From: Nitrospiraceae bacterium
GTDB taxonomy: Bacteria > Nitrospirota > Thermodesulfovibrionia > UBA6902
DNA: 64,000 nucleotides
Direction of reading: 5' to 3'
NCBI GenBank assembly: GCA_020356065.1
Contig: CP070632.1
Coordinates: 58,665-122,664 of the forward strand
In this document: piece after piece, positions 20,701-51,702 of the stretch
Numbering within the stretch: the first letter of the stretch is position 1
Layout: each line of letters starts with the position of its first letter
The notes under the pieces: model-generated
Database searches by the model: none
What the model was told of the DNA's origin: nothing
Seen by the model: the letters and a program-made list of their open reading frames with translations, nothing else
Made by a program: the position numbers and the translations under genes

Positions 20701-21345
20701 TCACTTTAATCTGTCGAATATGTGAGTTACAACGTAGTCAATCTCCATTCCCGTTGAATCAACATATATCATGTCATCGGTTTTCCTTAACGGCGAACTT
20801 TCCCTTGATGAGTCCCTTAAATCCCTGCTTCTGATATCATCAATCGTCTTGTCCATGGTCATCTCCGGGTTATTGATTTTGAGTTCTTTAAATCTGCGCC
20901 TTGCTCTCTCCTCAACACTTGCATCAAGATAGAATTTATTTTCTGACTCAGGACATATGGTAGTGCCTGTGTCTCTTCCCTCAATTACGACTCTTCCCTG
21001 AAGACATAATTTTCTCTGGATATCAAAAAGAGCTGATCTGACAGAAGGCTTCGCAGAGACACGGGAACTCAGTTCGCTTATTTCAGCTGTCCTGATCTCT
21101 GAAGAGATGTCCTGCCCGTCAACAAGGATCTGTTCATTTTCAAAGGTGATATGTATTTTCTTCAGCATATCATCAAGGGCCTTTTCATTTTCAATATCTA
21201 TTTTATGTTGGTCCGTCTGCCAGGCAACGGCCCTGTACAACGCACCTGTATCAAGGTAACTGTAACCGAGTTTCCTGGCGAGGAGCTTTGCGATTGTTCC
21301 CTTGCCTGACCCTGACGGGCCGTCTATTGTTATAACATGCTTCAT
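20701..21345 (-). CDS. cmk: Cytidylate kinase
   Basis: P-loop 'IDGPSGSGKGT'. 214 aa. Upstream of rpsA. Confidence 0.9.
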   Translation of the reverse strand: MKHVITIDGPSGSGKGTIAKLLARKLGYSYLDTGALYRAVAWQTDQHKIDIENEKALDDMLKKIHITFENEQILVDGQDISSEIRTAEISELSSRVSAKPSVRSALFDIQRKLCLQGRVVIEGRDTGTTICPESENKFYLDASVEERARRRFKELKINNPEMTMDKTIDDIRSRDLRDSSRESSPLRKTDDMIYVDSTGMEIDYVVTHIFDRLK

Positions 21346-21403
21346 TGTCTGTTCAGTATTCGATTCATGAATGTCAAAGATGTTTGGCCCACATTATTCA
21401 CAC

Positions 21404-21557
21404 AGCCAGGGAGGTAAGCTTTAAAAAAAGTTTTGAATTAGGCGCAATGCAAGTTAAAATGATCATTCTTAGCACTTCATCAAGGTATAATATGTATGCT
21501 TACGTACTGCTGTGATAGCCGCTCCCAAAACTTTTTTTAAAGCTTACCTCCCTGGCT
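21404..21557. mobile_element. MITE-like 154-bp element with perfect 32-bp terminal inverted repeats (AGCCAGGGAGGTAAGCTTTAAAAAAAGTTTTG) flanking a 90-bp core
   Basis: The left arm 21404-21435 is the exact reverse complement of the right arm 21526-21557. No coding capacity. It sits between aroA and cmk. Confidence 0.5.
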
Positions 21558-21594
21558 CAACTATTTATGAATAAAAAGGATTAGTAATACAGTT

Positions 21595-22992
21595 TCAATA
21601 CAAACTTTTCAGCAGTTCAGGAAACTGAGGGAAAGATGTATTGATACATTCCGTGTCCTCAATTATTAAGCCGCCTTCTGTAACCAGGCCCGCGACAGCC
21701 ATTGACATTGCGACTCTGTGATCACCGTGACTCTGTACGACGGCATGTCTTAATCTGTCTAATCCTGTAATGGCAAGGCCATCTTCAGATTCTTCAACGT
21801 GCACCCCTGTCTTCCGCAGTTCCATAGCCATTGATGCGATCCTGTCGGACTCCTTTACCCTCAATTCTGATGCCCCGGATATTCTGGTTACCCCTCCGGC
21901 TATTGCTGAAGCAGCACACAATACAGGAAATTCATCTATTGCCCTGAGAATGAGGTCTCCGCCGATGTCTGTTCCCATGAGTTCTGAATATCTGACGCGT
22001 ATATCAGCGACAGATTCGCCGGAAACTTCGTGTACATTATGGAGAGTTATATCTCCACCCATCTTCTGAAAGATATCAATTATGCCTGTTCTTGTAGGAT
22101 TAATTCCCACTTTTTTTATAACTATATCCGAGCCGGGCACTATCAGACCGGCAGCAATAAAAAATGCAGCGGACGAAAGGTCACCAGGGATGGTGATGTC
22201 AAATGGAGCCAGTCCCTTTCCACCCTGAATGCTCACTTCCAGGCCATCAATATTAATATCAGCTCCGCATGAGGTAAGCATCCTCTCGGTATGATCACGC
22301 GATTTGCCAGGCTCAATAACTGTTGTACAGCCTTCACAGTAAAGGCCTGCGAAAAGAATTGCTGACTTTACCTGTGCGCTGGCAACAGGGGAATGATATG
22401 TAATTGCAATCAGGTTACCGCCTTTAATAGTGAGAGGAGGCCTACCCCCTTTTTCAGAACTGATATGAGCGCCCATTTCAGAAAGCGGCTTAATGATCCG
22501 GCGCATTGGTCTTCTGAGAAGAAACTTATCTCCCGTAAGGACCGAAGTAAATGGCTGTGCTGAAAGAATTCCGCTCAGAAGCCTCATTGTTGTGCCGGAA
22601 TTACCGCAATCTATGTTATCCCGTGGAGCTGTCAGTCCTCTTAGTCCCTTTCCATTAATGATGATCCGGTCGCTGTCTTTATCATCTATGTCTATGCCCA
22701 TTTGGCGGAATGCTTTAAGGGTGCTTACGGGATCTTCAGCCTGCAGAGAGTTTCTGATGCTGCTTTTACCCTCGGCAAGGGAGGCCAGCATAATAGCTCG
22801 ATGGGAAATTGATTTGTCAGCAGGAGGTTTAATTTCTCCTTGCAACGGGCCTCTATGCCTGATACTAATCTGACTCAATGAGCTTTCTTGCCTCTTGTGC
22901 CTTGATAAATTCCTGTTCCAGGCCGGGCCAGTCAGAATTTTCAAACATCGCAATGAGAGCAGTGATGTGAGAAGAGAACTTTTTAAGGACAT
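21595..22992 (-). CDS. aroA: 3-phosphoshikimate 1-carboxyvinyltransferase (EPSP synthase)
   Basis: 'LQGEIKPPADKSISHRAIMLASLAEG' and 'NSGTTMRLL' EPSPS motifs. The annotated N-terminus overlaps tyrA by about 128 nt, so the true start is probably a TTG or other alternative codon near 22878. Confidence 0.88.
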   Translation of the reverse strand: MSLKSSLLTSLLSLRCLKILTGPAWNRNLSRHKRQESSLSQISIRHRGPLQGEIKPPADKSISHRAIMLASLAEGKSSIRNSLQAEDPVSTLKAFRQMGIDIDDKDSDRIIINGKGLRGLTAPRDNIDCGNSGTTMRLLSGILSAQPFTSVLTGDKFLLRRPMRRIIKPLSEMGAHISSEKGGRPPLTIKGGNLIAITYHSPVASAQVKSAILFAGLYCEGCTTVIEPGKSRDHTERMLTSCGADINIDGLEVSIQGGKGLAPFDITIPGDLSSAAFFIAAGLIVPGSDIVIKKVGINPTRTGIIDIFQKMGGDITLHNVHEVSGESVADIRVRYSELMGTDIGGDLILRAIDEFPVLCAASAIAGGVTRISGASELRVKESDRIASMAMELRKTGVHVEESEDGLAITGLDRLRHAVVQSHGDHRVAMSMAVAGLVTEGGLIIEDTECINTSFPQFPELLKSLY

Positions 22993-25003: not shown

Positions 25004-26071
25004 TTACTCCGCAGAAGGATACGACCCGAGGACTTTAAGAAAGAGGCATTCCTTCTTTACATCTTTTATGGCCTTGCTTACTGCCCTGTCTTCTACATGT
25101 CCGGACATGTCAACAAAAAACAGGTATTCCCAGGCTTTTCTTCTTGAAGGTCGTGACTCGATTTTTGTCAGGTTAATCTTGTGTCTGGCAAAGGGTCTTA
25201 ACATCAAATACAGCGCACCCGGCTTATCCTTCAGAGACAGCATGATTGATGTCTTGTCCTTACCTGTCTTCCCCGGTGATTCCTTTGCTATTACAAGGAA
25301 ACGGGTATAATTTGCCTTATTATCTTCGATCCCCTTTTCAACGACCTTCAGATTATACACAGATGCCGCAAGCTCACTCGCGACTGCCGCAGCTGAAGGG
25401 TCCCGTGCTGCACGCCTTGCTGCTGCTGCCGTGCTGAGTTCTTCCAGGATAGGAACATGTGGATAGTTTCGATCCAGCCATGCCCGGCACTGGGCCCTTG
25501 GTTGAGGATGGGAATATATTTTCTTTATATTTTTTTTTAATCCGGTCTTTGACAGCAGATAGTGAGATATTGGTAGCATGACCTCAAAAGCGATTTTAAG
25601 GTCGAAATCAATAAACATGTCGAGTGTATAATTAATTACTCCTTCGGTGGAGTTTTCGATTGGTATTACACCATACTGCACATGTTCTCTCAGCACAGAC
25701 TCGAACACCTCTTTTATGGTACTTTCAGGAAGGTACTCGGAAGACGTTCCAAACTTCCTCCTTGCTGCTAAATGTGTGAATGTTGCTGACGGTCCCAGAT
25801 ACGCGACTTTTAAAGGTTGCTGCAAAGCCAGGGATGCTGATATTATTTCTTCATACACAAGTCTGAGCGTTTCATCAGGAAACGGCCCGGGGTTGAGCTT
25901 TTTCAGCCTTTTAAGGATTGCCCGTTCCCTTTCCGGAGAATGAATCTTCAGGCTCTTGTTCTGCTTGGTTTTTCCAACTTCCAGTGCGACCTCTGCTCGC
26001 TTATTCAAAAGGCCAAGGATCTGCTGATCTATTACATCAATTTCTTCCCGGAGTTTTTTCAGCTCTGACAT
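25004..26071 (-). CDS. pheA: Bifunctional chorismate mutase / prephenate dehydratase (P-protein) with ACT domain
   Basis: N-terminal chorismate mutase helix, a PDT domain and a C-terminal ACT domain. Confidence 0.85.
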   Translation of the reverse strand: MSELKKLREEIDVIDQQILGLLNKRAEVALEVGKTKQNKSLKIHSPERERAILKRLKKLNPGPFPDETLRLVYEEIISASLALQQPLKVAYLGPSATFTHLAARRKFGTSSEYLPESTIKEVFESVLREHVQYGVIPIENSTEGVINYTLDMFIDFDLKIAFEVMLPISHYLLSKTGLKKNIKKIYSHPQPRAQCRAWLDRNYPHVPILEELSTAAAARRAARDPSAAAVASELAASVYNLKVVEKGIEDNKANYTRFLVIAKESPGKTGKDKTSIMLSLKDKPGALYLMLRPFARHKINLTKIESRPSRRKAWEYLFFVDMSGHVEDRAVSKAIKDVKKECLFLKVLGSYPSAE

Positions 26072-26541
26072 AGTAATTAATGCTTCGGGTTAAAGGGTTA
26101 TCGCAGAAATATGTTGATGCTTAATTTAGCAATAAAAACAAGATTTTTCAAGACTTGAAGCAAGAACCTCTTGTTGTTTGGATACTCCTTCTATCATGTT
26201 GATCATGATCATTTATCAAAAATACAACTTATCAGCGGAGGTGCAAGTTGGATGAGTGACGGACTTGAATACCGTTTTTTATGACGAATAATCTGTGTGT
26301 ATAAAACATTACATTCTATGTATCAGTAAAGTCATTCAATTGCATGATTTTGCATACACAATCAGGGATTGTGCTCTGATAATTAATTTGTCATTATGAC
26401 AATTACATATTAATCAATTAGTTATAAGAGGCATAAATATAGGCATATTTATTGCTTCCAACTAATACACGCACTATGTGAAGCAATGGATGCGTACGTT
26501 CTTAAGCTCAATTTTCAGAAAATTTAAGGCATGGGAGTAAT

Positions 26542-27579
26542 ATGATCATAACAAACAAGAGAAGATCCAGACGGTTTGATCGTCCCTTTTTTGTCCAGTT
26601 CAGACAATTGAAGGGACTGGCTTCGTATTCACTGGGTATGACATCTAATATTTCAAGTGATGGATTTTGCTTTCAGTTTCAAAATATTGAGCTTAAGCAG
26701 GGTGATAACCTGGAATTCAAATTTAACAACCAGCAGACTAAACAGTCTGTTCATTTTTTTGGAGATGTGATGTGGACTCAGAAAAATGATATGAAATACA
26801 TCGCAGGTATAAGATTCTGCATGTCTGACAAGAAAAACAGAAAGAAAATGCTGAAAATTATATCTGACTTTTTTACAATTCCTTTGGATCAGTTGACTTA
26901 CAGGCATGATAAAAAATCGTCAGAGCATGTGAGAAGTAAAAAAGCAGTATCAGAAACGGATCAGGTGCACGGAAATTTATCAAGTTATTGGAAGCATATC
27001 ATAAAAAAAGGAATTAAAATATGCATGCATTTGGTTATATTAGCTGTGATCACCACTGCATTCGTGTTAGTTATGCCAGTATTGACCGAACAGTATGAGC
27101 ACCTGACGAAACCCCCTGTTGAATCGCATGTTCAAACTGTTGTTTATGATAATTCTGTTAATGATACGTCAAAATCAATGTCTGTACATCAGATAAGGGA
27201 TGCAATCAGAAGTGAATATGACGAATCAGAGAAATTATTTTTTGCAGATAAACATAGCGACTTGGAAGTAAAGAAAGGAAGCAGCAATGTAACTGCAATA
27301 GAGAAAGGAATGGAACTGACACATACTCAGCCGACACAAAGCGAATCAGAAAATTTTAAATTTTATGTTCAGGTCACATCTCCATACGACCCTGAGCATG
27401 CTTATGAAATGCTTTTAAAAATAAAAAATTATTATCCGGATGCGTTCCTGTTTAAGATAAATGACTATTATAAAATAAGAATTCCAGGAATAACGAGTGA
27501 AAAACAGGGGACAGAGGTCAATAAAGATCTGGAGGATAAGCTGAACGTCAAGTCTGTCTTAGTATACAGACTGAAATGA
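26542..27579 (+). CDS. PilZ domain - single transmembrane helix - SPOR domain protein
   Basis: PilZ motifs 'RRSRRFDR' (RxxxR) and 'NISSDG' ((D/N)xSxxG). Transmembrane helix 'ICMHLVILAVITTAFVLVMPVL'. C-terminal SPOR-like 'FYVQVTSPYDPEHAYEMLLKIK...YKIRIPG'. Confidence 0.55.
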   Translation: MIITNKRRSRRFDRPFFVQFRQLKGLASYSLGMTSNISSDGFCFQFQNIELKQGDNLEFKFNNQQTKQSVHFFGDVMWTQKNDMKYIAGIRFCMSDKKNRKKMLKIISDFFTIPLDQLTYRHDKKSSEHVRSKKAVSETDQVHGNLSSYWKHIIKKGIKICMHLVILAVITTAFVLVMPVLTEQYEHLTKPPVESHVQTVVYDNSVNDTSKSMSVHQIRDAIRSEYDESEKLFFADKHSDLEVKKGSSNVTAIEKGMELTHTQPTQSESENFKFYVQVTSPYDPEHAYEMLLKIKNYYPDAFLFKINDYYKIRIPGITSEKQGTEVNKDLEDKLNVKSVLVYRLK

Positions 27580-27892
27580 TAGCTGGTACGTGCCATACAA
27601 AATGGTATCGATTATGAGGGACCGATGTGATCCGTATGACAAATATCATGGTTTAATTTCTGAAATACGGGTAATTAATACTAAGAAAAGAAATAGGCAA
27701 TCAAAAGAGGGTGTTGATTGAAATAAAAAGTTCCTATCTACCCCCCCCACTAAGAGCTTGGACTTTTTATTTTCACGTTGTCCAAAGACATCAGTCAGCA
27801 TCCTCTTTTTCCTTTCTTTTAATCATCGATTAAATTCTTTAAGATCTGAGTTTTGCACATGAACATGCAATTAAGGAAGGAGATGTTCCGTA

Positions 27893-30800
27893 TTATTTTT
27901 TTATCACTTTTACCATGATATCACCAAAGCCCGGCATACCGGTGAAGGGAGATAAGTTATTTGAGTCAAAAAGTTCATTAATATTAAAAGTGTACCCTGA
28001 AGTATTATTTGCAAATCCCATTCCAGACGCTGTTTGACCTCCTGGCCCGAAAGCTGTTTTAATAACCCCAGGCATTATTTCCTCTGTCAGGTATACCTTA
28101 CCATTCACTCTTTGTCCTAAAGGATTCTCAAGAGTAACTATTTCTCCGGTCTTGATTCTGAGATGATTGCCATCGGCTGTGTTAATAGATAAAACTGGTA
28201 TTGATACAGTTCCGGCATGAAATAGTTTTTCACCGTACTGAGGAATCGCATCTTTATCAGCCGGATTATGAATGGCAGGGTTAACATTCCGGAAATCGTC
28301 ATTTAATGGTTTCATACATTCAGTTTCAGTCTCGGCAAGGGAGGGGCATATACCAGTCATAGTCATTGCATAATGCGCCCTTCCGCTGATTAGTTGAAAG
28401 GGATACTCTTTCTTTTTTTCTCTGTAATGAAAATTTGAAGTAATCCACTTGCATTCTGACCAGTAAAAAGTAGAAGGGAAATCAGTGCCGAAAGTGCTAT
28501 TTATTTTTTCAAGATAACTGAATTTAAATTCAAATCTGCCCGACCCAGTGCGGGGGTACGTTCCTGAAGGGGATCCGTCTGACTTTTTATAACGGTAATA
28601 GCTTGCAGGCCAGATTGCCACGCCGTGGTTGTTTCTTAACCACTCAACAGTGAGGGGTACTCCCTGCCTGATCTTTATTTTGTCCAAGTTAGCTGTAGGA
28701 TCATCCGGCACTCCCATAATCAAGCTTCCTTCCGGCAGATCAGGATAGGGAAGGGGGTGTCCGAAATTATAGAATCCCGGAGCTTCACTTAATATTTCAT
28801 TTATGAAATCTTCTTCGTCTGTGTACTTCATAAAATCCTCAGCCTTTATATCAGGATCACCGTTTTTTATAAAGGCTTCAGAAAGGCAGGTCATGATTTC
28901 AAATGGAGTTTTAGAATTGTGTAATGGTTTAATTGTCTGGTCTCTTAAAGCAATTTCCGGGCTCATGGTATACACATCACTCACACCCATTCTCTCCAGA
29001 TATCCGGCCTCCGGTAGTATTAGATCAGCGTATTTACCGGTAACATTGATATGTGTGTCAATAAATACCATCAGCTCTAGGTGATAATCTCCGTTTTTTT
29101 GTTTTGCAGTAACGGAGTCGATCCAGTCATTGGTGTTGCCGGCAGTGATAACAGGATTTCCAGCCCTTGCTATAAAGGCCTTTACAGGGTAATGGTGACC
29201 TTTGAACGGGCCGTGTTTGAGTGTTATTCCATTTCGTATTTTATCCGGCATATCAGCAAGAACCCCTTTCCAGGCCGCTGGATAGTCGCCTAAGAGGTCT
29301 TTATGAAGTGCTGAGAGTTTGCCATTATTCTCACGACCTTTAATAATCCGGCTGACAATAACATTTAAAAAATTTTTGCCTGAAGTACGCTCCCCCTTTC
29401 TGGCCTTCTGGGAATCTATGAATACAAGCCCTCCCGGCACATCCATATTGCCAGTAATCAGGCAAATCGCTGTCATGAGAATGGACGTTACATCACCATT
29501 TGTGTGGTGAGCAGTACCATGCATACCAATTTCAATCGCAGAAGGTTTTGTGATTCCAAAGAGATGGGAAATATTCCTTATATCAGCTTGGGAAATTCCA
29601 GTCCTTTGCTCAGCCCACTCAGGCGTGAAAAAATTCAAACCATTAGATTCATCTATTCTAGTTGTATATGACAGAAATGCTTTTTTAAACTCGGTCCAAC
29701 CGGTTGTATATTTATCAATAAAATCATGATCTATATATTTTTTATTATCATTATTTGGATCGTCATCAGTAATAATGCAATAAAGGATTGATGCAAGCAG
29801 CGCCGCATCTGCCCCTGGATTTATTGGTAACCAAATGTCAGCATGTGCAGAAGAATTGGTGTAAGATGGATCAATAACAATATACATGCATCCGTTTTCT
29901 TCTTTAGCTGCCGGGATACCTCCAGACATGTAATTGAACCTGGTTGCCACTAATGGATTAGCGCCTATATTAAGAAGCAATTTTATGTCATGCTTTTTTT
30001 TTAGATCCAGATTCCCGTTATCATTTCTTACCAAAACCGGCCTCTGAATGTCAGGTAAAGGTCTTTCATCACCTATCATGATGCTCTGTCCCCATTTTCG
30101 GTTAGGATCACAGATGCTGCCATGATTGTAAGTATTCGGTGTACCGAAAGCATGAAATAAACGGTAATAGGCTTCCCTGTCAGTGACATCCCCGCAATCG
30201 AGAAATACTGATTCAGGTCCGTAATTCTTTTTAATATCAATTAATTTGCCTGCGATATGGTCAGCTGCTTCTTTCCATGTGATTTCTTTCCATTTATCGT
30301 CACCCCTATTACCGGTCCTTATAAGAGGAGATTTTATTCTATTCTGTGAGTATGTTAGCTCAAGCCCTGCAGCTCCTTTTGCACAAAGTGCTCCGTTATT
30401 AACTAAAGTATGGGGATTGCCATGTATCTTTGTAGCTACACCGTTCTCAACAGTTACTGTTATCCCGCATTCGGAAGGACACATTGCGTCTGAAGTAAAT
30501 ATCTGTGATGAAGAGTGTTCAGAAGGTGATAGGGGAAGTCGTGATTGAGTGCGAAGGGTAGACGGAATTTTTGCTTTTATATTCCTGGATAAGAGATTAA
30601 TATCAATGGGGTCATTTATTGTATAAAAAATTGAAGGATTTGTGGGGTGCTCTGAAAATCGAACATACTGATTTTTCTGTGTTAAAGCATGAGATATCTC
30701 ACTTGTTTTATTATTCAGGTCACCGAATATCATTGCTTTTCCCATACAACTATCAACACATACGGGTGATAAATTGTGTACTATCCTGTTGTCATAACAG

Positions 30801-31168
30801 AAATCACACTTTTCCACCTGAGCCGATTCCTCATTTATCTCAATCGCATCATATGGACATTTGTCATAACAGATCTGACATCCGGTACATTTTTGCTTAT
30901 CAAAAACAACAACACCATCCTGATTTTTAACGAGTGCCTGTTCCTCGCAGGCATCTATGCAGGGTGCACTATCACAGTGATTACATAAGCGCGGAAGGAA
31001 AATTTTTTTCAGATGTGGGTAATTACCTGACCGGACTGTTTCAATTCTGCATCTGGAAGTACCGAAGGGGATATTGAATTCAGATTTGCAGACCATCTGG
31101 CAGGCCTGACATCCAATGCATCTGTTAAGATTGATTAACATTCCCAATCTTCGCTGTTTATGGGCCAT
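27893..31168 (-). CDS. Fused 4x[4Fe-4S] ferredoxin (PsrB/NrfC-like) and molybdopterin (Mo-bisPGD) oxidoreductase catalytic subunit; no Tat motif
   Basis: Four N-terminal CxxCxxCxxxCP clusters, e.g. 'CIGCQACQMVCK' and 'CTGCQICYDKCP'. Then a MopB N-terminal FeS 'CPSECGITV...CAKG' and a long molybdopterin domain. 1091 aa. Confidence 0.75.
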   Translation of the reverse strand: MAHKQRRLGMLINLNRCIGCQACQMVCKSEFNIPFGTSRCRIETVRSGNYPHLKKIFLPRLCNHCDSAPCIDACEEQALVKNQDGVVVFDKQKCTGCQICYDKCPYDAIEINEESAQVEKCDFCYDNRIVHNLSPVCVDSCMGKAMIFGDLNNKTSEISHALTQKNQYVRFSEHPTNPSIFYTINDPIDINLLSRNIKAKIPSTLRTQSRLPLSPSEHSSSQIFTSDAMCPSECGITVTVENGVATKIHGNPHTLVNNGALCAKGAAGLELTYSQNRIKSPLIRTGNRGDDKWKEITWKEAADHIAGKLIDIKKNYGPESVFLDCGDVTDREAYYRLFHAFGTPNTYNHGSICDPNRKWGQSIMIGDERPLPDIQRPVLVRNDNGNLDLKKKHDIKLLLNIGANPLVATRFNYMSGGIPAAKEENGCMYIVIDPSYTNSSAHADIWLPINPGADAALLASILYCIITDDDPNNDNKKYIDHDFIDKYTTGWTEFKKAFLSYTTRIDESNGLNFFTPEWAEQRTGISQADIRNISHLFGITKPSAIEIGMHGTAHHTNGDVTSILMTAICLITGNMDVPGGLVFIDSQKARKGERTSGKNFLNVIVSRIIKGRENNGKLSALHKDLLGDYPAAWKGVLADMPDKIRNGITLKHGPFKGHHYPVKAFIARAGNPVITAGNTNDWIDSVTAKQKNGDYHLELMVFIDTHINVTGKYADLILPEAGYLERMGVSDVYTMSPEIALRDQTIKPLHNSKTPFEIMTCLSEAFIKNGDPDIKAEDFMKYTDEEDFINEILSEAPGFYNFGHPLPYPDLPEGSLIMGVPDDPTANLDKIKIRQGVPLTVEWLRNNHGVAIWPASYYRYKKSDGSPSGTYPRTGSGRFEFKFSYLEKINSTFGTDFPSTFYWSECKWITSNFHYREKKKEYPFQLISGRAHYAMTMTGICPSLAETETECMKPLNDDFRNVNPAIHNPADKDAIPQYGEKLFHAGTVSIPVLSINTADGNHLRIKTGEIVTLENPLGQRVNGKVYLTEEIMPGVIKTAFGPGGQTASGMGFANNTSGYTFNINELFDSNNLSPFTGMPGFGDIMVKVIKK

Positions 31169-31259
31169 ATCTGTAATTTAACTGATTATTTCTTATAAAA
31201 TAAACCGATGTCAGTTAAGGTATAATTAACAACTTCATATAGATATCATTATTCAGAAC

Positions 31260-31649
31260 ATGACTGCATATTTCAATACACATAATTTGGAGGGAAAAAT
31301 GTCATATAAAATAAATTTTAATATTGAACTGGATTGTCTGGATAGGGATGAATTATTGGAAAGAATAAACGGACAATTCAATTTTGTGCTGATAGATACA
31401 ATTGGAAAATATGATGGGAACAGGTTCAAAATTAAAGGGGCTACAACAATCTCCTATCCTGAGGTTGTGGATAGACGCAAAGAGTTTGAATTATTTGATG
31501 AAATTATCATTTACTGCAAACATAAGGATTGCATGGCTTCAAAAAAAGTTGCAATTGGCTTAAAAATGCTTAATATACCTAATGTGAAAATATATGAGGG
31601 AGGAATAGACGAATGGATTGCAAATAACCTGCCTGTAGAACAAGAATAA
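31260..31649 (+). CDS. Rhodanese-like sulfurtransferase (single domain)
   Basis: Rhodanese fold with a candidate active-site Cys loop 'IIYCKHKDCMASKK'. Confidence 0.65.
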   Translation: MTAYFNTHNLEGKMSYKINFNIELDCLDRDELLERINGQFNFVLIDTIGKYDGNRFKIKGATTISYPEVVDRRKEFELFDEIIIYCKHKDCMASKKVAIGLKMLNIPNVKIYEGGIDEWIANNLPVEQE

Positions 31650-31678
31650 TATACTCCTTCATTATACTACATTTTTAT

Positions 31679-32005
31679 TTACTCACTGAAGATAAACTTG
31701 CAGCAGCCCAGGTCCAGAACCTGGTTGTCTTCAGAAAGGTGTGACCTGAGGTTTTCTGTAACATGATAAATTCTGTGTATCCCGTCTTTTCTTTTCTGTA
31801 CCAGTCCGCTGGTTTCAAGGATCTTCAGGTGCTTTGAAATATTATATGTCTTGATATCCAGAGATTCAGAAAGGTCCTGAACAGAGGACTCCTGCTTCAG
31901 GAGCGTATGAATGATCTGAAGACGGTTTTCATCAGCCAGAGCCTTTAATATCGAAGTCCAGTTAAGCGTAGACTCAATTCGTGACTTTTTCCCCTTGTAT
32001 TCCAT
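31679..32005 (-). CDS. ArsR/SmtB-family transcriptional regulator
   Basis: 'LKALADENRLQIIHTL' winged helix-turn-helix. C-terminal Cys pair 'GCCK'. Confidence 0.75.
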   Translation of the reverse strand: MEYKGKKSRIESTLNWTSILKALADENRLQIIHTLLKQESSVQDLSESLDIKTYNISKHLKILETSGLVQKRKDGIHRIYHVTENLRSHLSEDNQVLDLGCCKFIFSE

Positions 32006-32270
32006 ATTTTTTATATATTCTATTACAGAAGTAAAATCAAGAGAATGTTATTCTCTAATCATTTGGATATAAAACAGATTTTGAATAGTAATATTAATAT
32101 AGTTTAACAGATTCTGTTATTACTTGCCAAAGTCAGCAAATAATAAATTGCATATTAATAATCGTCTTATAAATATTTCTAATTGCTCCAGTAAATTATA
32201 GTATGTTATAATGCGTCGATTGATTTTCTTGACTCTTTTTTAAAATCTAACAGTTAATCAGGAAATTATC

Positions 32271-33791
32271 ATGCTGCTATATATATTTCTGGTTGTATAC
32301 TTTCTCATCCTGTTCACGGTTTTTGTTTATTCCTCCCACAGGTATTACATGGTGTATCTTTATTACAAACATCAGAAAGATAAACCTGTCCTTAAAAAGA
32401 AACTCGACAAGCTTCCCCAAGTGACCGTACAACTTCCAATTTATAACGAAATGTATGTCACCAGGAGATTGATACAGGCATCGTGTAATATTGACTACCC
32501 GGTTGAACTGCTCGAAATCCAGGTCCTGGATGATTCAACTGATGAGACGACTGAAGTGGCCCGCACATGCGTCGAGGAACTCAGAGCAAAAGGTTATGAC
32601 ATTCAATATATTCACAGGGAAAACAGAGCGGGCTTTAAAGGGGGTGCGCTTGCAAATGGACTGAAAACAGCGAAAGGTGAGTTTGTGGCAGTGTTTGATG
32701 CTGATTTCGTCCCCCAGAAGGACATTCTGAAGAAAACGATTCATTTCTTTGCGGACCCGACCGTGGGAATGGTACAGACCAGATGGTCCTATCTGAACAG
32801 GGCATATTCATTTCTGACAAGGATTCAGGCGATCATGCTTGACGGGCACTTTGTAATTGAACATACAGCAAGAAACTGGTCAGGGAGATTTTTTAATTTT
32901 AACGGTACAGCCGGCGTGTGGAGGAAAGAGGCCATTCAGACTGCAGGGGGCTGGCAGAATGATACGCTCACCGAAGACCTGGACCTGAGCTATAGATCAC
33001 AGCTTAAGGGATGGAAGTTTATATTTCTGAAAGATGAACTGTCACCGTCAGAAATTCCTGTTGAAATTAACGGTTTTAAAAGTCAGCAGCACAGGTGGGC
33101 AAAGGGATCGATACAGACAGCAAAAAAACTCCTCCCCCAATTATTGAAAAGCGATCTGCCCTTAAAAATTAAAGTCGAGGCTTTTTTTCATCTTACCAAT
33201 AATATTTCGTATCTGCTGATGCTGGTACTTTCGGTTTTAATATATCCTTCGATGGTTGCAAGAATCAACATCGGCTGGTTTCAGATGCTGGTTACCGACG
33301 TACCTTTCCTTTTATTTGCAACGGTCGGGATATCTTTCTTTTACACCTGTTCGCAGAGGGAGGCTTATAAAAACTGGAGGTCAAGAATTCTCTATCTTCC
33401 CATGCTCATGTCTCTCGGGATCGGGCTTTCCGTTAACAACTCAAAGGCTGTTCTAGAAGCGATCTTTAACAGACAGACAGAATTTAAACGGACCCCGAAA
33501 TACAGCATAGAAGCAAAAAAAGACAGCTGGCTTGGGAAGAAATACAGGGGAGAGATAAATTTTCTGGTTATCATGGAACTGCTGCTGGGTGTGTATTTCT
33601 CATTCAATATTTATTTTGCATTCATTAACAAGATTTATGTATCGATACCGTTTCTGATGATATTTCAGATGGGATATTTTTATGTTGCCTTTCTCTCGAT
33701 TTTTCAAGTAATATTAAACGCCATAACTTCGAACAGACTGGCACGCCACATTATTTCAAAAAGAAACACGGAAGACGTCATTGCTGCTTAG
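32271..33791 (+). CDS. Membrane-embedded processive family-2 glycosyltransferase (cellulose/chitin/PNAG-synthase-like)
   Basis: DxD 'DDSTDET', 'DADF', and the 'QQHRWAKG' QxxRW processivity motif. N- and C-terminal transmembrane helices. No C-terminal PilZ. Confidence 0.7.
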   Translation: MLLYIFLVVYFLILFTVFVYSSHRYYMVYLYYKHQKDKPVLKKKLDKLPQVTVQLPIYNEMYVTRRLIQASCNIDYPVELLEIQVLDDSTDETTEVARTCVEELRAKGYDIQYIHRENRAGFKGGALANGLKTAKGEFVAVFDADFVPQKDILKKTIHFFADPTVGMVQTRWSYLNRAYSFLTRIQAIMLDGHFVIEHTARNWSGRFFNFNGTAGVWRKEAIQTAGGWQNDTLTEDLDLSYRSQLKGWKFIFLKDELSPSEIPVEINGFKSQQHRWAKGSIQTAKKLLPQLLKSDLPLKIKVEAFFHLTNNISYLLMLVLSVLIYPSMVARINIGWFQMLVTDVPFLLFATVGISFFYTCSQREAYKNWRSRILYLPMLMSLGIGLSVNNSKAVLEAIFNRQTEFKRTPKYSIEAKKDSWLGKKYRGEINFLVIMELLLGVYFSFNIYFAFINKIYVSIPFLMIFQMGYFYVAFLSIFQVILNAITSNRLARHIISKRNTEDVIAA

Positions 33792-33866
33792 CGGGCATGT
33801 ATGAAAAGATCCGGAAGCGGAATAAATAATATTTTATTAAATCTAATTCTAAAGGAGAGCGTAATT

Positions 33867-34904
33867 ATGAAGAAGATTTTGTTGGTGGCTTTCTTGTTAA
33901 TCACAGCATTGATTTTTACAGCTGGTGATGCCTTTTCTGCATGGACACAGCCCAAAGGATATGCTTACAATCAATTATCCTTCAGTTATTACAAAACGAA
34001 TGAGAAATGGACAACATTAGGACTCAACGCCGATGGTGAGGTCATTGACCTGGATGTTGATGTGGAAAAGACCGATACTGAAGATTTTACCTCTACAAAG
34101 ATTTCCTACTACAGTGAGTACGGAATAATTGATAAACTGACCATATTCTATTCATTTGGATATGACTGGCAGAAATCTGATGATGTTCAGAAATTCACAG
34201 ATGAAAACGGTCCGAGTGGCATAGGAGATATAGATCTTGGATTACGATATCATCTCATGGACAATATCGCGGGAACCGGCATTCTGTCGTCAGCACAGGT
34301 GAAACTAAAAATTCCTGAGGCGTATGATTATGGTAACCCAGTTACAAAACTCAGTCTTGGAGACGGCCAGTATGATGCTACGTTTGCACTGTTGTTTGGA
34401 AGAGGCTTCAGCAAGGGATATGCATGGCTTAACGCAGGCTATAAGTACAGGTTTGAAAATAAAGAGCATGATCCTATTACGTTCAAGCCGTCTGACCAGG
34501 TCAAGGTTTCCTTTGGCGGCGGGTATCCTCTTTTATCATGGTTGTCAATAGGAGGCCTTGTTGACTGGACCAAGTCTGTCGGCAATGCAGAAGTGTCAGA
34601 TGAACTATTAATAGCCAATTATCCAGCCGGGGGAAAAACTTGGCATGGTGATACTGTAGTTATTAAAGACTCCCTTGGCCTTGAGCCGAGCGCCCTGAGT
34701 CTTGGTGTTGATCTGATCTTTGATATATCCAAGTTTGTACCGGTTATGAAGGAAACATTCCCGAGCAAATCAATTGTCTTTTCTTTTGTAACGGATGTGG
34801 CCGGTTTCGGACCTTTTAAAACCGAGGATTACTCTCTCGGCAGGACGTACAGCGTTGCTTTTGTATTTCCGGGTAAGGGTTTTTTCCCGGTCAACCTGTT
34901 CTAA
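33867..34904 (+). CDS. Outer-membrane β-barrel protein (putative exopolysaccharide export porin)
   Basis: Signal peptide 'MKKILLVAFLLITALIFTAGDAFSA' after an AAAGGAGAG ribosome-binding site. Alternating amphipathic strands. C-terminal '...FPVNLF' terminal-Phe β-barrel signature. The ORF-track start at 33801 is probably too long. Confidence 0.5.
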   Translation: MKKILLVAFLLITALIFTAGDAFSAWTQPKGYAYNQLSFSYYKTNEKWTTLGLNADGEVIDLDVDVEKTDTEDFTSTKISYYSEYGIIDKLTIFYSFGYDWQKSDDVQKFTDENGPSGIGDIDLGLRYHLMDNIAGTGILSSAQVKLKIPEAYDYGNPVTKLSLGDGQYDATFALLFGRGFSKGYAWLNAGYKYRFENKEHDPITFKPSDQVKVSFGGGYPLLSWLSIGGLVDWTKSVGNAEVSDELLIANYPAGGKTWHGDTVVIKDSLGLEPSALSLGVDLIFDISKFVPVMKETFPSKSIVFSFVTDVAGFGPFKTEDYSLGRTYSVAFVFPGKGFFPVNLF

Positions 34905-34951
34905 ACGCTGTTCATTCGTTTCCGGTGATTATCCGGACTTGACGATCTTTT

Positions 34952-34996
34952 ATAAATTTTATCCCGACCCTTACATAGGATCGGGATAAAATTTAT
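34952..34996 (+). promoter_or_regulatory. Perfect 16-bp inverted repeat ATAAATTTTATCCCGA / TCGGGATAAAATTTAT with 13-nt loop, between the OMP and TPR genes
   Basis: Seen directly. Either an intercistronic terminator/attenuator or a protein-binding palindrome. Confidence 0.4.
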
Positions 34997-35053
34997 CTGC
35001 AAATTACGAAGCTGTCAGGTATATACCTTAGTGTCAGTTCAGGATGTGCACAC

Positions 35054-35665
35054 ATGAACATAAAAAAGGTTCTCCCTCTGCTCATCATAATCTCTGTTTC
35101 GAGCGTTCTTGCTCTTTATATGTATCATCACAGATACACGCTTACTGCTCTATTTTACCAGACATTCCGGGAGCAGAACAGGGCGATCGATAACTTCAAG
35201 ATGGCCATAGAACGTGATCAGGGAAATGTGTATGCATATTATCAGCTTGGATTAATATATAAGGAAAGAAAAGAGTATGCCAAGGCCGAGAATATATATC
35301 TGAAGCTGTTAGATCTGGCCCCTGAGCATCCCTTTGCCAATTATGATCTGGGATTCATATATCGGGAGCTGAAATTATTTCAAAAAGCGATGAGGCATTA
35401 CGAGAAGGCTCTGGAGATAGATCCACGGAATACATACGCACTATCTGATATTGGATATATTTACAAGGAGCAGGGTATGTATGGTAAAGCTGTTGTCCAG
35501 TTTGAGAAGGTCCTCGCAATTGAACCTGACCATAAATATGCCTTATGGGACATTGCCGAGGTCTATGAAAGGATGGGGATGAAAGAACGGGCTGACGAAC
35601 AATACAAATATTATCACGAAAGGACGGACTGCAGTTTCACAAAAGTCTGGAATTGTTTTGATTGA
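35054..35665 (+). CDS. TPR-repeat protein with N-terminal signal-anchor
   Basis: Four to five TPR units, e.g. 'AYYQLGLIYKERKEYAKAENIYLKLLDLAPEHP'. The stop codon directly abuts the next gene's start. Confidence 0.75.
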   Translation: MNIKKVLPLLIIISVSSVLALYMYHHRYTLTALFYQTFREQNRAIDNFKMAIERDQGNVYAYYQLGLIYKERKEYAKAENIYLKLLDLAPEHPFANYDLGFIYRELKLFQKAMRHYEKALEIDPRNTYALSDIGYIYKEQGMYGKAVVQFEKVLAIEPDHKYALWDIAEVYERMGMKERADEQYKYYHERTDCSFTKVWNCFD

Positions 35666-37666
35666 TTGAATATTATTTCCTATATCCTCATAAATCTGCT
35701 GCTTTTTTCTTCCTGGTACACATTCCTATTTAACAAGAGGGGATTCATACCTTTTGTTGACCGGCTCATTGGGACTTCTGTATTTGCCCTGACACAGATA
35801 ATATTGACTGAAATGTTCCTTGGGGTTTTATTTAAAGCACTCTACAGTTCAAGCCTGCTGTCTCTTAATCTGATTATATCCATGACAGTATTGACATATT
35901 CCCTCCGCTTCGGGAGTGTCACTGCAGGAACTCCTCTTTCAGTTTATATAATATCGGTCTTTGTTGAGCTGGGAGAAAAGAGCAAACGGTTTTTCAGTAT
36001 CATTGGCAATGACATTATATTAACTTTAATATTCAGTCTTTTTTGCATTTTAATCGGCTGGATGATTTTCATTGCATATCTTTTCCCTTCGTATACGTGG
36101 GATGCTCTGTGGTACCATCTCCCGATAGTCGGGTATATCATGCAGAATGGAGCTGTCCAGGAGCTTGCCAACAACTCATTTATAGAGCAGTTTATAAATA
36201 TTTTTCCGAAAAACATAGAGTTGTTCTTCCTCTGGAACATAATATTTCTTAAAAGCGATGTCTTGATTGATCTGAGCCAGATGTTATTTACACTGGTCGG
36301 GGTATTAGCAGTGTTCAGTATGGCAATAAAACTTGAAATTCGGGAAGAGTACGCTATGTACGCTGCTTTATTGTTTTTCTTTACACCGGTTATTATTCTA
36401 CAGTCCACAACCAACTATGTAGATATTGCTATTTCTGTTTTATTTCTTGCCGCCCTGAATTTTTTAATCAGCAACTGCGAGCTGACGTCCTGGAACAGTG
36501 TGATGGTAATTAACAATATTAAGCAGAGAAAAATGTTTCTGCTTCTGGGAGGACTGACTACAGGCATACTGCTTGGTGCAAAGGGATCAGGCCCGTTGTT
36601 CCTTGTCATACTCTCTGCACTGGTCATGATACAGAAAGTAAGGAAATATATGGCTTATACTCGGAATCCGGACATGTTAAAGGAATACATAGCCCGGAAA
36701 GTTATGAAATCATATCTCATATATTTTATTGTCCCGGCTGTCATGATGGGAGGGTACTGGTATATGAAGAACTGGGTTTTATATGACAATCCGGTATATC
36801 CAATGGATGTGTCAATCATGGGCAAGGTATTGTTCAAGGGTTTATATAAGGATATGATTGAGCCGGTCCCGGATACCATTAAAAAGCTTTCTTTCTTTGC
36901 AAGACCAATATATGTCTGGATGGAACATATTGAATTTTATTTATATGATTCCAGGCTCGGCGGTTTGGGACCCATATGGTTTATTCTTTTTATTCCCAGC
37001 CTGGTTTTTTCAACTTTACATGCTCTGAAAAACAGAAAATATCAATTCCTTGCTGTTGTGGCTATTATTATGACAGGTTTTTTTATCTATCCACGACACT
37101 GGACGCCAAGATATGTAATATTTATTGTAGGACTGGGTGCGCTGTCATTTGCATATATTATGGACTTCTTTTATGTTAGAGACAGAATAATCAGACTAAT
37201 CGTGCTTTTGCTTACCGCATATACATTTTTAACGGTCAATTCCCCGTGCGTTACTCCTGCACAAATTAAACATTTCGTCAATCTTCCTGCCAGTGAAAGG
37301 ACGATTGCGCGTCATGCTCCATATAATATAGATATACATGCCCGGCAGGAATACGGACACTGGATCTGGATAAGTGATAACATAAAGACAGGTGAAACTT
37401 TGGCCTATACATTTGAACCATTGTTCCTCTCGCCATTATGGAACAGCGGATTTTCAAACTCTATTATATATATTAAAGCAGAATCATATAATGAATGGTT
37501 AAAGGATCTGGAGATGAACATGGTCTCATATGTACTTGTAAGAACAAAATCTAAAGAGGACAAATGGGTAGAGGCCAGTTATTCCCTTATCTGGATGGGG
37601 ATGAGGGAAAGGTTTAACGTTGAATATGCTGACGATCATTACAAAATCATAAGGTTTTTAAAGTGA
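35666..37666 (+). CDS. Large polytopic membrane protein, putative GT-C-fold glycosyltransferase (PMT/ArnT/YfhO-like)
   Basis: At least 11 transmembrane helices followed by a roughly 150-aa C-terminal soluble domain. Paired with a DPM1-like GT2 downstream. Assignment is by architecture only. Confidence 0.35.
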   Translation: MNIISYILINLLLFSSWYTFLFNKRGFIPFVDRLIGTSVFALTQIILTEMFLGVLFKALYSSSLLSLNLIISMTVLTYSLRFGSVTAGTPLSVYIISVFVELGEKSKRFFSIIGNDIILTLIFSLFCILIGWMIFIAYLFPSYTWDALWYHLPIVGYIMQNGAVQELANNSFIEQFINIFPKNIELFFLWNIIFLKSDVLIDLSQMLFTLVGVLAVFSMAIKLEIREEYAMYAALLFFFTPVIILQSTTNYVDIAISVLFLAALNFLISNCELTSWNSVMVINNIKQRKMFLLLGGLTTGILLGAKGSGPLFLVILSALVMIQKVRKYMAYTRNPDMLKEYIARKVMKSYLIYFIVPAVMMGGYWYMKNWVLYDNPVYPMDVSIMGKVLFKGLYKDMIEPVPDTIKKLSFFARPIYVWMEHIEFYLYDSRLGGLGPIWFILFIPSLVFSTLHALKNRKYQFLAVVAIIMTGFFIYPRHWTPRYVIFIVGLGALSFAYIMDFFYVRDRIIRLIVLLLTAYTFLTVNSPCVTPAQIKHFVNLPASERTIARHAPYNIDIHARQEYGHWIWISDNIKTGETLAYTFEPLFLSPLWNSGFSNSIIYIKAESYNEWLKDLEMNMVSYVLVRTKSKEDKWVEASYSLIWMGMRERFNVEYADDHYKIIRFLK

Positions 37667-37904
37667 TGAATATAAAAGACAGGCGGGACTAATATTATTT
37701 TCTGTTTATAATATGCATAGCTGTTCTTGCATTCTATTATTTCACCATGTAGGAAAGAGCGGCCTTTATAAAGCAGCAGTTAATATGGTGGTGAGAGTTT
37801 TTTAGATAGTAACATGAATTATGCAAAATATATGAATGAGTTAACTCGAAAAAGTTTCTATAATCTTCAGGAGTTAAGGTGTCAAGGATTCAAGGAGTAC
37901 AGTT

Positions 37905-37962
37905 AGAAGTCGCTTGATTCCTGGGATTTCGAAGCGAGTCTACGCAAGAGTCGCTACGACCT
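37905..37962. repeat. Intergenic repeat copy C (TTCGAAGCGAGTCTACGC / GAGTCGCTACGACC palindromic core)
   Basis: Shares the TCGAAGCGA and GCGTAGACTC / GAGTCTACGC segments with copy B. Seen directly. Confidence 0.3.
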
Positions 37963-37998
37963 GTAATTCCATTTCTAACTAAATGTGAGAAATAAATC

Positions 37999-38691
37999 AT
38001 GCTTGATGACAAAAAAATAGCTGTCATCATACCGGCCTTAAATGAAGAATCCACACTTCCTCTTGTGTTGAAAGATATATCAAGAGAGCTGGTGGATGAA
38101 ATAGTTGTTATTGATAACGGCAGCAGTGACAGGACCGCTGTAATAGCAAGAAATGCCGGGGCAACAGTCCTTCATGAAACCAAAAAGGGTTACGGATATC
38201 CCTGTCTGAAAGGAATTGAACACATCAAAACCAGCAGGGCAGATGTTCTGGTCTTTGTAGATGGCAATTACAGTGATCACCCTGATGAAATCATGAATCT
38301 GGTAGAACCGATAGTAAGAAATGATTATGATCTTGTTCTTGGATCCAGAACTCTTGGACAGGCTGAAGAAGGATCATTAAGGGTGCCTGTACGATTTGGA
38401 AACTGGCTTGCTACAGTCCTGATCAGCCTTTTTTATAATTATAAATACAGTGATGTTGGTCCATTCAGGGCGATTAAATTTGACAGGCTTCTTGACCTTG
38501 ATATGCATGATAACCTCGGATGGACAATCGAGATGCAGGTAAAAGCCGTCAGGAGAAAATACAGGATAACCGAAGTGCCTGTCAGTTACCGGACTGGAAC
38601 GGGAAAGTCAAAGTTAACGGGAAATATAAGGGGCATTGCTGTTGTTGGATACAGGATAATCAGGGCTATACTTAAAAATCTTTTTTACTAG
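37999..38691 (+). CDS. Family-2 glycosyltransferase, DPM1/GtrB-like polyprenyl-phosphate sugar synthase (soluble form)
   Basis: 'IAVIIPALNEE', 'VIDNGSSDRT' and 'DGNYSDHPDE' (DxD). 230 aa. Confidence 0.75.
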   Translation: MLDDKKIAVIIPALNEESTLPLVLKDISRELVDEIVVIDNGSSDRTAVIARNAGATVLHETKKGYGYPCLKGIEHIKTSRADVLVFVDGNYSDHPDEIMNLVEPIVRNDYDLVLGSRTLGQAEEGSLRVPVRFGNWLATVLISLFYNYKYSDVGPFRAIKFDRLLDLDMHDNLGWTIEMQVKAVRRKYRITEVPVSYRTGTGKSKLTGNIRGIAVVGYRIIRAILKNLFY

Positions 38692-51583: not shown

Positions 51584-51702
51584 CCCCTCTGTATCTCCCT
51601 TCGGAATCGGGTCGTACCGGCTTCGCAATGAGTCACATCGAACTGGCACAGAGGGGGTTTGAATTCTCCCCTTAACGAGCCGGTCCGACCCGATTCCGAG
51701 AC
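51584..51702. repeat. Highly structured intergenic element with nested inverted repeats: a roughly 25-bp imperfect pair (13-bp perfect core CGGAATCGGGTCG / CGACCCGATTCCG) plus CCCCTCTGT / ACAGAGGGG
   Basis: Seen directly. Located between convergent genes. No ORF. Confidence 0.4.

Follow-up and report, generated by a model that had tools for sequence, protein, structure and literature searches.

The palindromic element that separates aroA from cmk in this Nitrospiraceae genome is very probably a copy of a 194-bp non-autonomous MITE that inserted at a T-purine-purine target in a former aroA-cmk spacer of about 52 nt. It combines the features by which prokaryotic MITEs are recognized, namely size (under about 500 bp), lack of coding sequence, terminal inverted repeats, target-site duplications, occurrence at multiple loci and a precise empty site. 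No description of MITEs in Thermodesulfovibrionia or Nitrospirota was found in the searchable literature, and the family is previously undescribed in these groups, the kind of element being already known. Throughout, "the window" designates the whole analyzed stretch of 64,000 nt, from a genome of 3.17 Mb, and the sequences used for comparison are numbered with the prefix L. The coordinates of all features are collected in Table 1.

Table 1. Features of the aroA-cmk junction, in window coordinates.
Feature	Position	Strand	Details
cmk ((d)CMP kinase)	20701..21345	-	TIGR00017, 235 bits
Left flanking trinucleotide TTG (minus strand CAA)	21384..21386		Decayed half of the target-site duplication
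Complete MITE-like element	21387..21580		194 bp; nhmmer family-profile match 21384-21585, E = 6e-39
Outer terminal inverted repeat, "short" end (GCCCACATTATTCACAC)	21387..21403		TTCA to GGTAAGC, 12 nt
Inner arm 1 (AGCCAGGGAGGTAAGCTTTAAAAAAAGTTTTG)	21404..21435		Identical in the L002, L001 and L005 arms
Sigma-70-like match TTGAAT-16-TAAAAT, arm/core junction	21433..21460	+	9/12 positions; directed towards aroA, antisense
Core, 90 nt (AATTAGG...GCCGCTCC on the + strand)	21436..21525	+	Inverted relative to the outer ends, compared with the other copies
Inner arm 2	21526..21557		Exact reverse complement of arm 1
Outer terminal inverted repeat, "long" end (reverse complement TCCTTTTTATTCATAAATAGTTG)	21558..21580		7-nt extra segment; partly decayed
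Right flanking trinucleotide TTA (minus strand TAA)	21581..21583		Target-site duplication
aroA (3-phosphoshikimate 1-carboxyvinyltransferase)	21595..22992	-	TIGR01356, 428 bits; C-terminus PELLKSLY (then stop)

Gene calls place hisC, tyrA, aroA, the element, cmk, plsC and rpsA in this order on the minus strand, in agreement with an earlier, sequence-only reading of this DNA that located the element between a same-strand aro block and cmk-plsC-rpsA. The aroA stop codon (TGA, 21595-21597) lies 11 nt from the duplicated TAA, and the cmk ATG is found 38 nt past the flank of the element on the other side. The two genes are 249 nt apart, a gap that shrinks to 52 nt after subtraction of the element and one trinucleotide. 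At 21584-21610, the sequence directly after the aroA stop (…AAAAGTTTGTATTGA) reads AACTGTATTAC-TAA and resembles the aroA 3' end in L011 and L019 (AAACTGTAT…), as if a short duplication had displaced the older C-terminal coding end of aroA, with the MITE target TAA ending the relic. Elsewhere in the window, positions 26001-38000 have a G+C content of 0.35-0.39 compared to 0.41-0.46 outside this segment, and they carry a PilZ-domain gene, a 1091-aa molybdopterin oxidoreductase with ferredoxin domains, glycosyltransferases, a TPR protein and two large ORFs without a Pfam match.

A repeat search of the window bore out the exact reverse-complement pair on which the sequence-only reading was built: the two 32-nt arms are 100% complementary and 90 nt apart, their sequence occurs in just these two places of the 64-kb window and is not matched in any of 100 dinucleotide-preserving shuffles. 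The same reading took the arms as the termini of a 154-bp element, which requires revision, as the arms are internal and the element continues for 17 and 23 nt beyond them. These ends were set by comparing the L001 site with the empty site in L024 and by the family alignment, and were then transferred onto the window copy, resulting in a layout of a 17-nt outer end, a 32-nt arm, the 90-nt core, a second 32-nt arm and a 23-nt outer end. Across the family, an outer repeat CCCnCATTATTCA is followed by a spacer, a 32-bp arm, a core of 90 nt, the second arm and the outer repeat TGAATAATGnGGG(Y), so that terminal inverted repeats are present with the 32-bp arms nested inside. The spacer between outer repeat and arm measures 10 nt at the "long" end and 3 nt at the "short" end. 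The short end of the window copy matches that of L001 (GCCCACATTATTCACAC) near-exactly, and its long end, with 19 nt between GCTTACC and TGAA, shows 3 mismatches to the consensus CCCnCATTATTCA.

The absence of coding potential that had been claimed for the core holds: the sole overlapping ORF is a 56-aa TTG ORF running into the unique flank, and no protein-like conservation is seen between copies. No Rfam family was matched, either with gathering thresholds over the whole window or with relaxed thresholds over 21300-21650, where the search returned only far sub-threshold plant miRNA-precursor matches that are generic for long hairpins. The suggested half-CIRCE motif in the core (TTAGCACT) is best regarded as a chance match, having no partner half-site and no conservation in the other copies; the complete HrcA operator (TTAGCACTC-N9-GAGTGCTAA) gave 0 matches in the window with up to 3 mismatches allowed. 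The IHF-site consensus is WATCAANNNNTTR. As judged by eye, ATCAA is conserved in the middle of the core and the full consensus is unmatched.

The sequence-only reading had weighed a mobile MITE-like element against a selected RNA hairpin and had proposed to look for further copies of arm and core and for target-site duplications. Such copies were found at unrelated sites. Seven contigs from two Thermodesulfovibrionia MAGs (FO_M_Nitrospirota_05 and _06) and two contigs from JGI metagenomes contain an exact match to a 22-mer of the arm; the viral contigs scanned contain none. Outside the window, the family is represented on nine contigs from related genomes and metagenomes by ten copies or fragments, all at non-homologous loci. 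The likeness covers the core (about 74-79% by BLASTN) and reaches past the 32-bp arms on both sides. An nhmmer profile built on six full copies detected only one clear family copy in the window. Full copies measure 194 bp in L001, L002, L005 and the window and 191 bp in L006; the core is exactly 90 nt long in all seven full copies, and its left third is well conserved across the family alignment. Shortened copies also exist. An 82-bp core-less derivative in L007 (3203-3284) has its TAA duplication intact and its arms joined at a short AAAG repeat, and two half-elements, L003a (L003 7268-7377) and L004 (685-780), both end near mid-core. The breakpoints of the latter two adjoin a 14-bp palindrome (ATGTTGATCAACAT), which is present in most cores and absent from that of the window copy. 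The neighbors of the copies are housekeeping genes, including trpD-like and purB-like genes, hypF, cvpA, an EamA transporter gene and a TrmB-type regulator gene, and the orientation of the copies shows no consistent relation to them. Since the source is a metagenome-assembled genome, a spurious palindrome introduced by assembly could be considered; however, the same architecture, with identical arms and a 90-nt core, recurs in independent NCBI MAG and JGI metagenome assemblies, which refutes this explanation and leaves it a negligible probability. A separate 22-nt inverted repeat at window positions 51601-51699 (TCGGAATCGGGTCGTACCGGCT...), 95% complementary with 55 nt between its arms, is located between two convergent ORFs. 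A sequence much like it, TCGGAATCGAGTCGTACCGACC, is found upstream of an MBL-fold gene in L025, L026 and L027, and may represent a third dispersed repeat family.

The flanks of the copies record the insertion events. Five copies are bordered by exact 3-bp direct repeats (TAA/TAA, TAG/TAG, TAG/TAG, TGA/TGA and TAA/TAA) that are the same within a copy and vary between copies, and the probability that at least five of eight flank pairs match by chance is 7e-8. These trinucleotides are not part of the inverted repeat, because all five copies would mismatch if the flanks were read as inverted sequence; they are direct repeats outside it. For the window copy, the flanks read TAA...CAA on the minus strand and match at 2/3 positions; given this partial match and one decayed outer end, the copy may have lost its mobility. 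Most direct is the comparison of a filled with an empty site. In L001, the sequence ...GCAGAACTGC TAA (excerpted also as ...AAAGCAGAACTGC TAA) is followed by the 194-bp element and then by TAA ACAAAGGCAGGCTGTTCAT. In the metagenome contig L024, which shares the gene order and encodes a downstream neighboring protein 97% identical, ...GCAGAGCTGC TAA ACAAAAGAAGGCTGTTCAT is found with a single TAA (left flank excerpted also as ...AAAGCAGAGCTGC). The locus downstream of trpD in L002 provides a second case, as relatives with 90-91% protein identity do not carry the element there. Together with the multi-copy occurrence at non-homologous sites and the absence from orthologous spacers, the 3-bp duplications and the exact empty site favor the MITE reading over the hairpin that had been offered beside it.

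Two further observations concern the trpD region. In L034, at about 1012-1040, the sequence CCCGCATTCTTCAAGATAGTTCATCC is located 9 nt past the trpD stop and agrees at 12/13 positions with the long outer end of the family (CCCGCATTATTCA). No arm or core follows, and it may be the relic of an independent, mostly deleted insertion near the L002 site. In addition, a conserved 42-codon ORF that encodes four Cys (MKYPACVNESCTHNDKYFCKAEVLDEDIIC...) and is preceded by a strong Shine-Dalgarno sequence is located between trpD and a rubredoxin gene in several Thermodesulfovibrionia (L002 about 1590-1715 on the minus strand, L030 4209-4337 and L034 1217-1345), and no Pfam match is on record for it.

The outer terminal inverted repeats of about 14 bp (CCCnCATTATTCA...TGAATAATGnGGG) are presumably recognized by a transposase that is provided in trans, and transposition would depend on an IS elsewhere. 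No transposase was present among the genes next to any copy, and a search for the outer-end motif in the window and 36 loci, aimed at a parent or full-length IS with matching ends, returned MITE copies only.

The orthologous aroA-cmk junctions illustrate what the locus looks like in relatives, the closest of which has a Cmk protein 85% identical to that of the window. The family profile gave no match over the orthologous loci L010-L023. In L019, L020 and L022, the aroA stop is separated from the cmk start by 13 nt, and the L010 spacer of 234 nt is occupied by an unrelated nested palindromic repeat (TGTCATTCC...GGAATGACA), of which further variants are present in the spacers of L011, L013 and L014. 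L010 belongs to MAG _06, which has copies of the MITE family at other loci. The unrelated repeat itself (L010 5767-6000; L013 and L014 5764-6000; L011 3333-3504; L017 1-319; L029 1-70) has TGTCAT(T/G)CC...GGAATGACA ends and internal GGGAATCC and CCCGAAG...CGGGCA hairpins, and its L029 copy is located upstream of an MBL gene. It is probably another MITE-like family, and the contigs L015, L016 and L018 start inside it, so that assemblies break there. Small palindromic insertions seem to have a hot spot at the aroA-cmk junction. The cmk-plsC spacer of the same gene cluster measures 311 nt and is very A+T-rich in L019, L020 and L021 (L019 6646-6956), compared to 8-18 nt in the window and other relatives, and represents another lineage-specific insertion.

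These junctions bear on the idea of a selected cis-regulatory RNA hairpin, an attenuator, terminator or insulator that would part the aro genes from cmk-plsC-rpsA. The element does lie between two co-oriented genes, and the spacer folds on the transcribed strand with -76 kcal/mol (z = -6.0). Nevertheless, the 90-nt core shows no structure beyond that of shuffled sequence on either strand (z = +2.0 and +1.0), and the stability of the spacer is therefore due entirely to the arms, which are transposon arms common to the whole family. No terminator-like site was detected within the element on either strand, the sole match of the scan (21304-21320) lying outside, and the mRNA-strand sequence past the stem, GUGUGAAUAAUG, contains no U-tract. 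Moreover, copies reside at unrelated sites, where every orientation to the neighboring genes occurs, and the orthologous junction is either as short as 13 nt (L019) or filled with unrelated repeats (L010, L011 and L013). Since the element is not conserved at this junction, the attenuator or insulator alternative loses its main support, and a selected hairpin is highly improbable. The sequence-only reading had held that a single-copy element, conserved in distant relatives with compensatory change, would be a structural RNA or terminator; the element is multi-copy elsewhere and absent from the orthologous spacers. Read-through transcription is probable because aroA and cmk are on the same strand and only 249 nt apart, and assuming such transcription the element probably lies within the mRNA. 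There, the arms would form a very stable hairpin and a possible RNase III or stability determinant, as a by-product rather than a selected attenuator, and any effect on aroA or cmk expression is probably incidental.

A dispersed family of small-RNA genes, in which the core would be the sRNA and the arms would serve as processing or terminator stems, could account for the fixed 90-nt core of all full copies and for the good conservation of its left third. However, it does not fit with a core structure no better than shuffled, with the lack of a conserved promoter and with the absence of an Rfam match, and the dispersal is already accounted for by transposition, given the target-site duplications and the empty site. 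An sRNA family is accordingly given hardly any weight here.

Perfect arms had been taken by the sequence-only reading to imply a recent origin, an argument that comparison between genomes does not sustain. Between the window copy and that of L002, the arms are identical at 64/64 positions, compared to 63/91 aligned columns (69%) of the core (Fisher p = 4e-8), even though the TrpD proteins of the window genome and MAG_05 are only 80% identical and the organisms are thus well separated. Pooled over six comparisons, identity amounts to 90% in the arms and 67% in the core. Changes within the arms tend to occur in concert in some copies, with two in L006 that are the same in both arms and about seven in L003b, including a 3-nt insertion, and remain unpaired in others (two in L001, three in L005 and about eight in L009). 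Here, pairing was counted by aligning arm against arm within each copy, as MAFFT columns are unsuitable due to the asymmetric placement of gaps in A/T runs. Because the arms are far better conserved than the core and change in concert, and because one outer end of the window copy has decayed, perfect arms are no evidence of a recent insertion. Either the arms are homogenized against each other, or selection on transposition keeps them paired. A candidate homogenizing process would be arm-to-arm recombination within the molecule or template switching during replication.

The second unusual property of the window copy is the orientation of its core. The 7-nt segment that is present at one end only makes the ends of the element distinguishable, and the core can therefore be oriented relative to them. 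In the six other full copies, 19 nt on the left (the long end) and 12 nt on the right enclose a core reading AATACGG...GCCGCTCC, and two truncated copies agree. The window copy has the two lengths exchanged (left 12 nt, right 19 nt) and the core on the same strand, so that its short end adjoins the AATACGG side. The strand assignment of the core is based on 59-65 matches of 90 to the other copies on the same strand versus 31-53 as reverse complement, and an alignment anchored on the outer ends leaves the window core unaligned. One flipped core thus stands against six full and two truncated copies, in a comparison between different loci. The core of the window copy is therefore inverted relative to the asymmetric outer ends. 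A single inversion with breakpoints inside the 32-bp arms explains the arrangement, the alternative being a deletion and an identical insertion at opposite ends. Recombination within the molecule or template switching during replication, in both cases between the perfect arms, would produce such a flip, and the same arm-to-arm process would keep both arms identical. Reported inversions of Correia elements in Neisseria (review PMC10969869) set a precedent.

Whether inversion is accidental or programmed is a separate question. The arms could act as recombination sites of an invertible switch carried by the MITE, with the core flipping reversibly and altering transcription out of the element, a form of phase variation that has been proposed for Correia elements, and the window copy being in the alternative state. 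The flipped core in one of seven full copies, the perfect arms evolving in concert and the 9/12 promoter-like match at the arm/core junction of the window copy are consistent with this view, and for the Correia elements of Neisseria, core inversion and promoter activity have been reported (review PMC10969869). Yet the sigma-70-like match is specific to the window copy, is absent from L001 and L002 and is probably not functional. A conserved family promoter was considered as well and rejected, as no such motif is present in L001 and L002. Further, no recombinase gene is found beside any copy or among the annotated ORFs of the window, eight of the nine orientable copies share one orientation, as fits a rare accidental event, and two states at one locus were not found, the relatives being without the element at the loci tested. 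A reversible switch is therefore unlikely. The wider proposal of a transposon-borne DNA switch, in which each insertion would seed a local, heritable two-state element beside housekeeping operons and the window copy would represent the rarer state, is likewise improbable.

The element explains a gap of 249 nt that is unusual in a housekeeping gene cluster as compact as this one, and a repeat family is now defined by its consensus, exact ends and 3-bp duplication. The family breaks assemblies of uncultivated Thermodesulfovibrionia, as illustrated by contig L008, which terminates within a copy. Furthermore, it would provide a clear case in nature, from a host other than Neisseria, of a MITE with internal arms that are kept identical and a core that is apparently invertible, and accidental versus programmed switching by palindromic MITEs becomes testable in another phylum.

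Several known systems share individual features with this element. Intrinsic terminators would be expected to show a U-tract directly behind a G+C-rich stem and conservation at the orthologous position, neither of which is seen here (L010-L023). As in invertons, a short segment lies between inverted repeats and is known in both orientations, here across different loci. In contrast to invertons, however, the segment belongs to a dispersed transposon family; housekeeping genes make up the neighbors of the copies and the ORFs examined in the window, no adjacent invertase was found, and the 9/12 promoter-like match of the window has no counterpart in L001 and L002. Elements of the IS5 superfamily and PIF-Harbinger, together with "Tourist-like" MITEs, generate 3-bp target duplications on TA-rich trinucleotides. 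This duplication type is held in common with the present family, yet the TAG and TGA duplications observed here depart from the strict TNA/TWA target, and neither a transposase nor a full-length IS bounded by CCCnCATTATTCA was detected in the window and 36 loci, so that an IS5/PIF-Harbinger assignment is a lead only. The ERIC/IRU repeats of enterobacteria and other long-hairpin repeats are imperfect palindromes of intergenic regions, which are transcribed together with the neighboring genes and can change mRNA stability (PMC10969869). They differ from the present element in sequence and host, and transposition is directly supported here by the empty site and the target-site duplications.

The closest parallel is found in the Correia elements (CREE), which are defined by 26-bp Correia repeat ends and a characteristic core, are restricted to Neisseria and have arms that can form an mRNA hairpin serving as a substrate of RNase III (PMC2649163). 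The arm and core sequences of the Nitrospirota family differ from the motifs quoted in that study, its host is not a member of the Betaproteobacteria, its outer terminal inverted repeats of about 14 bp enclose inner 32-bp arms instead of a single 26-bp repeat, its duplication comprises 3 bp of the type T-purine-purine, and it is without a conserved promoter. In both cases, the elements are non-coding, about 100-200 bp long, have inverted-repeat ends, a directional core and a target duplication, and are mostly intergenic beside ordinary genes. They also share shorter, core-deleted variants (here the 82-bp copy of L007), hairpin-capable arms and core inversion, the latter represented here by one flipped core. 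The element is a functional analogue of the Correia elements and not a member of them.
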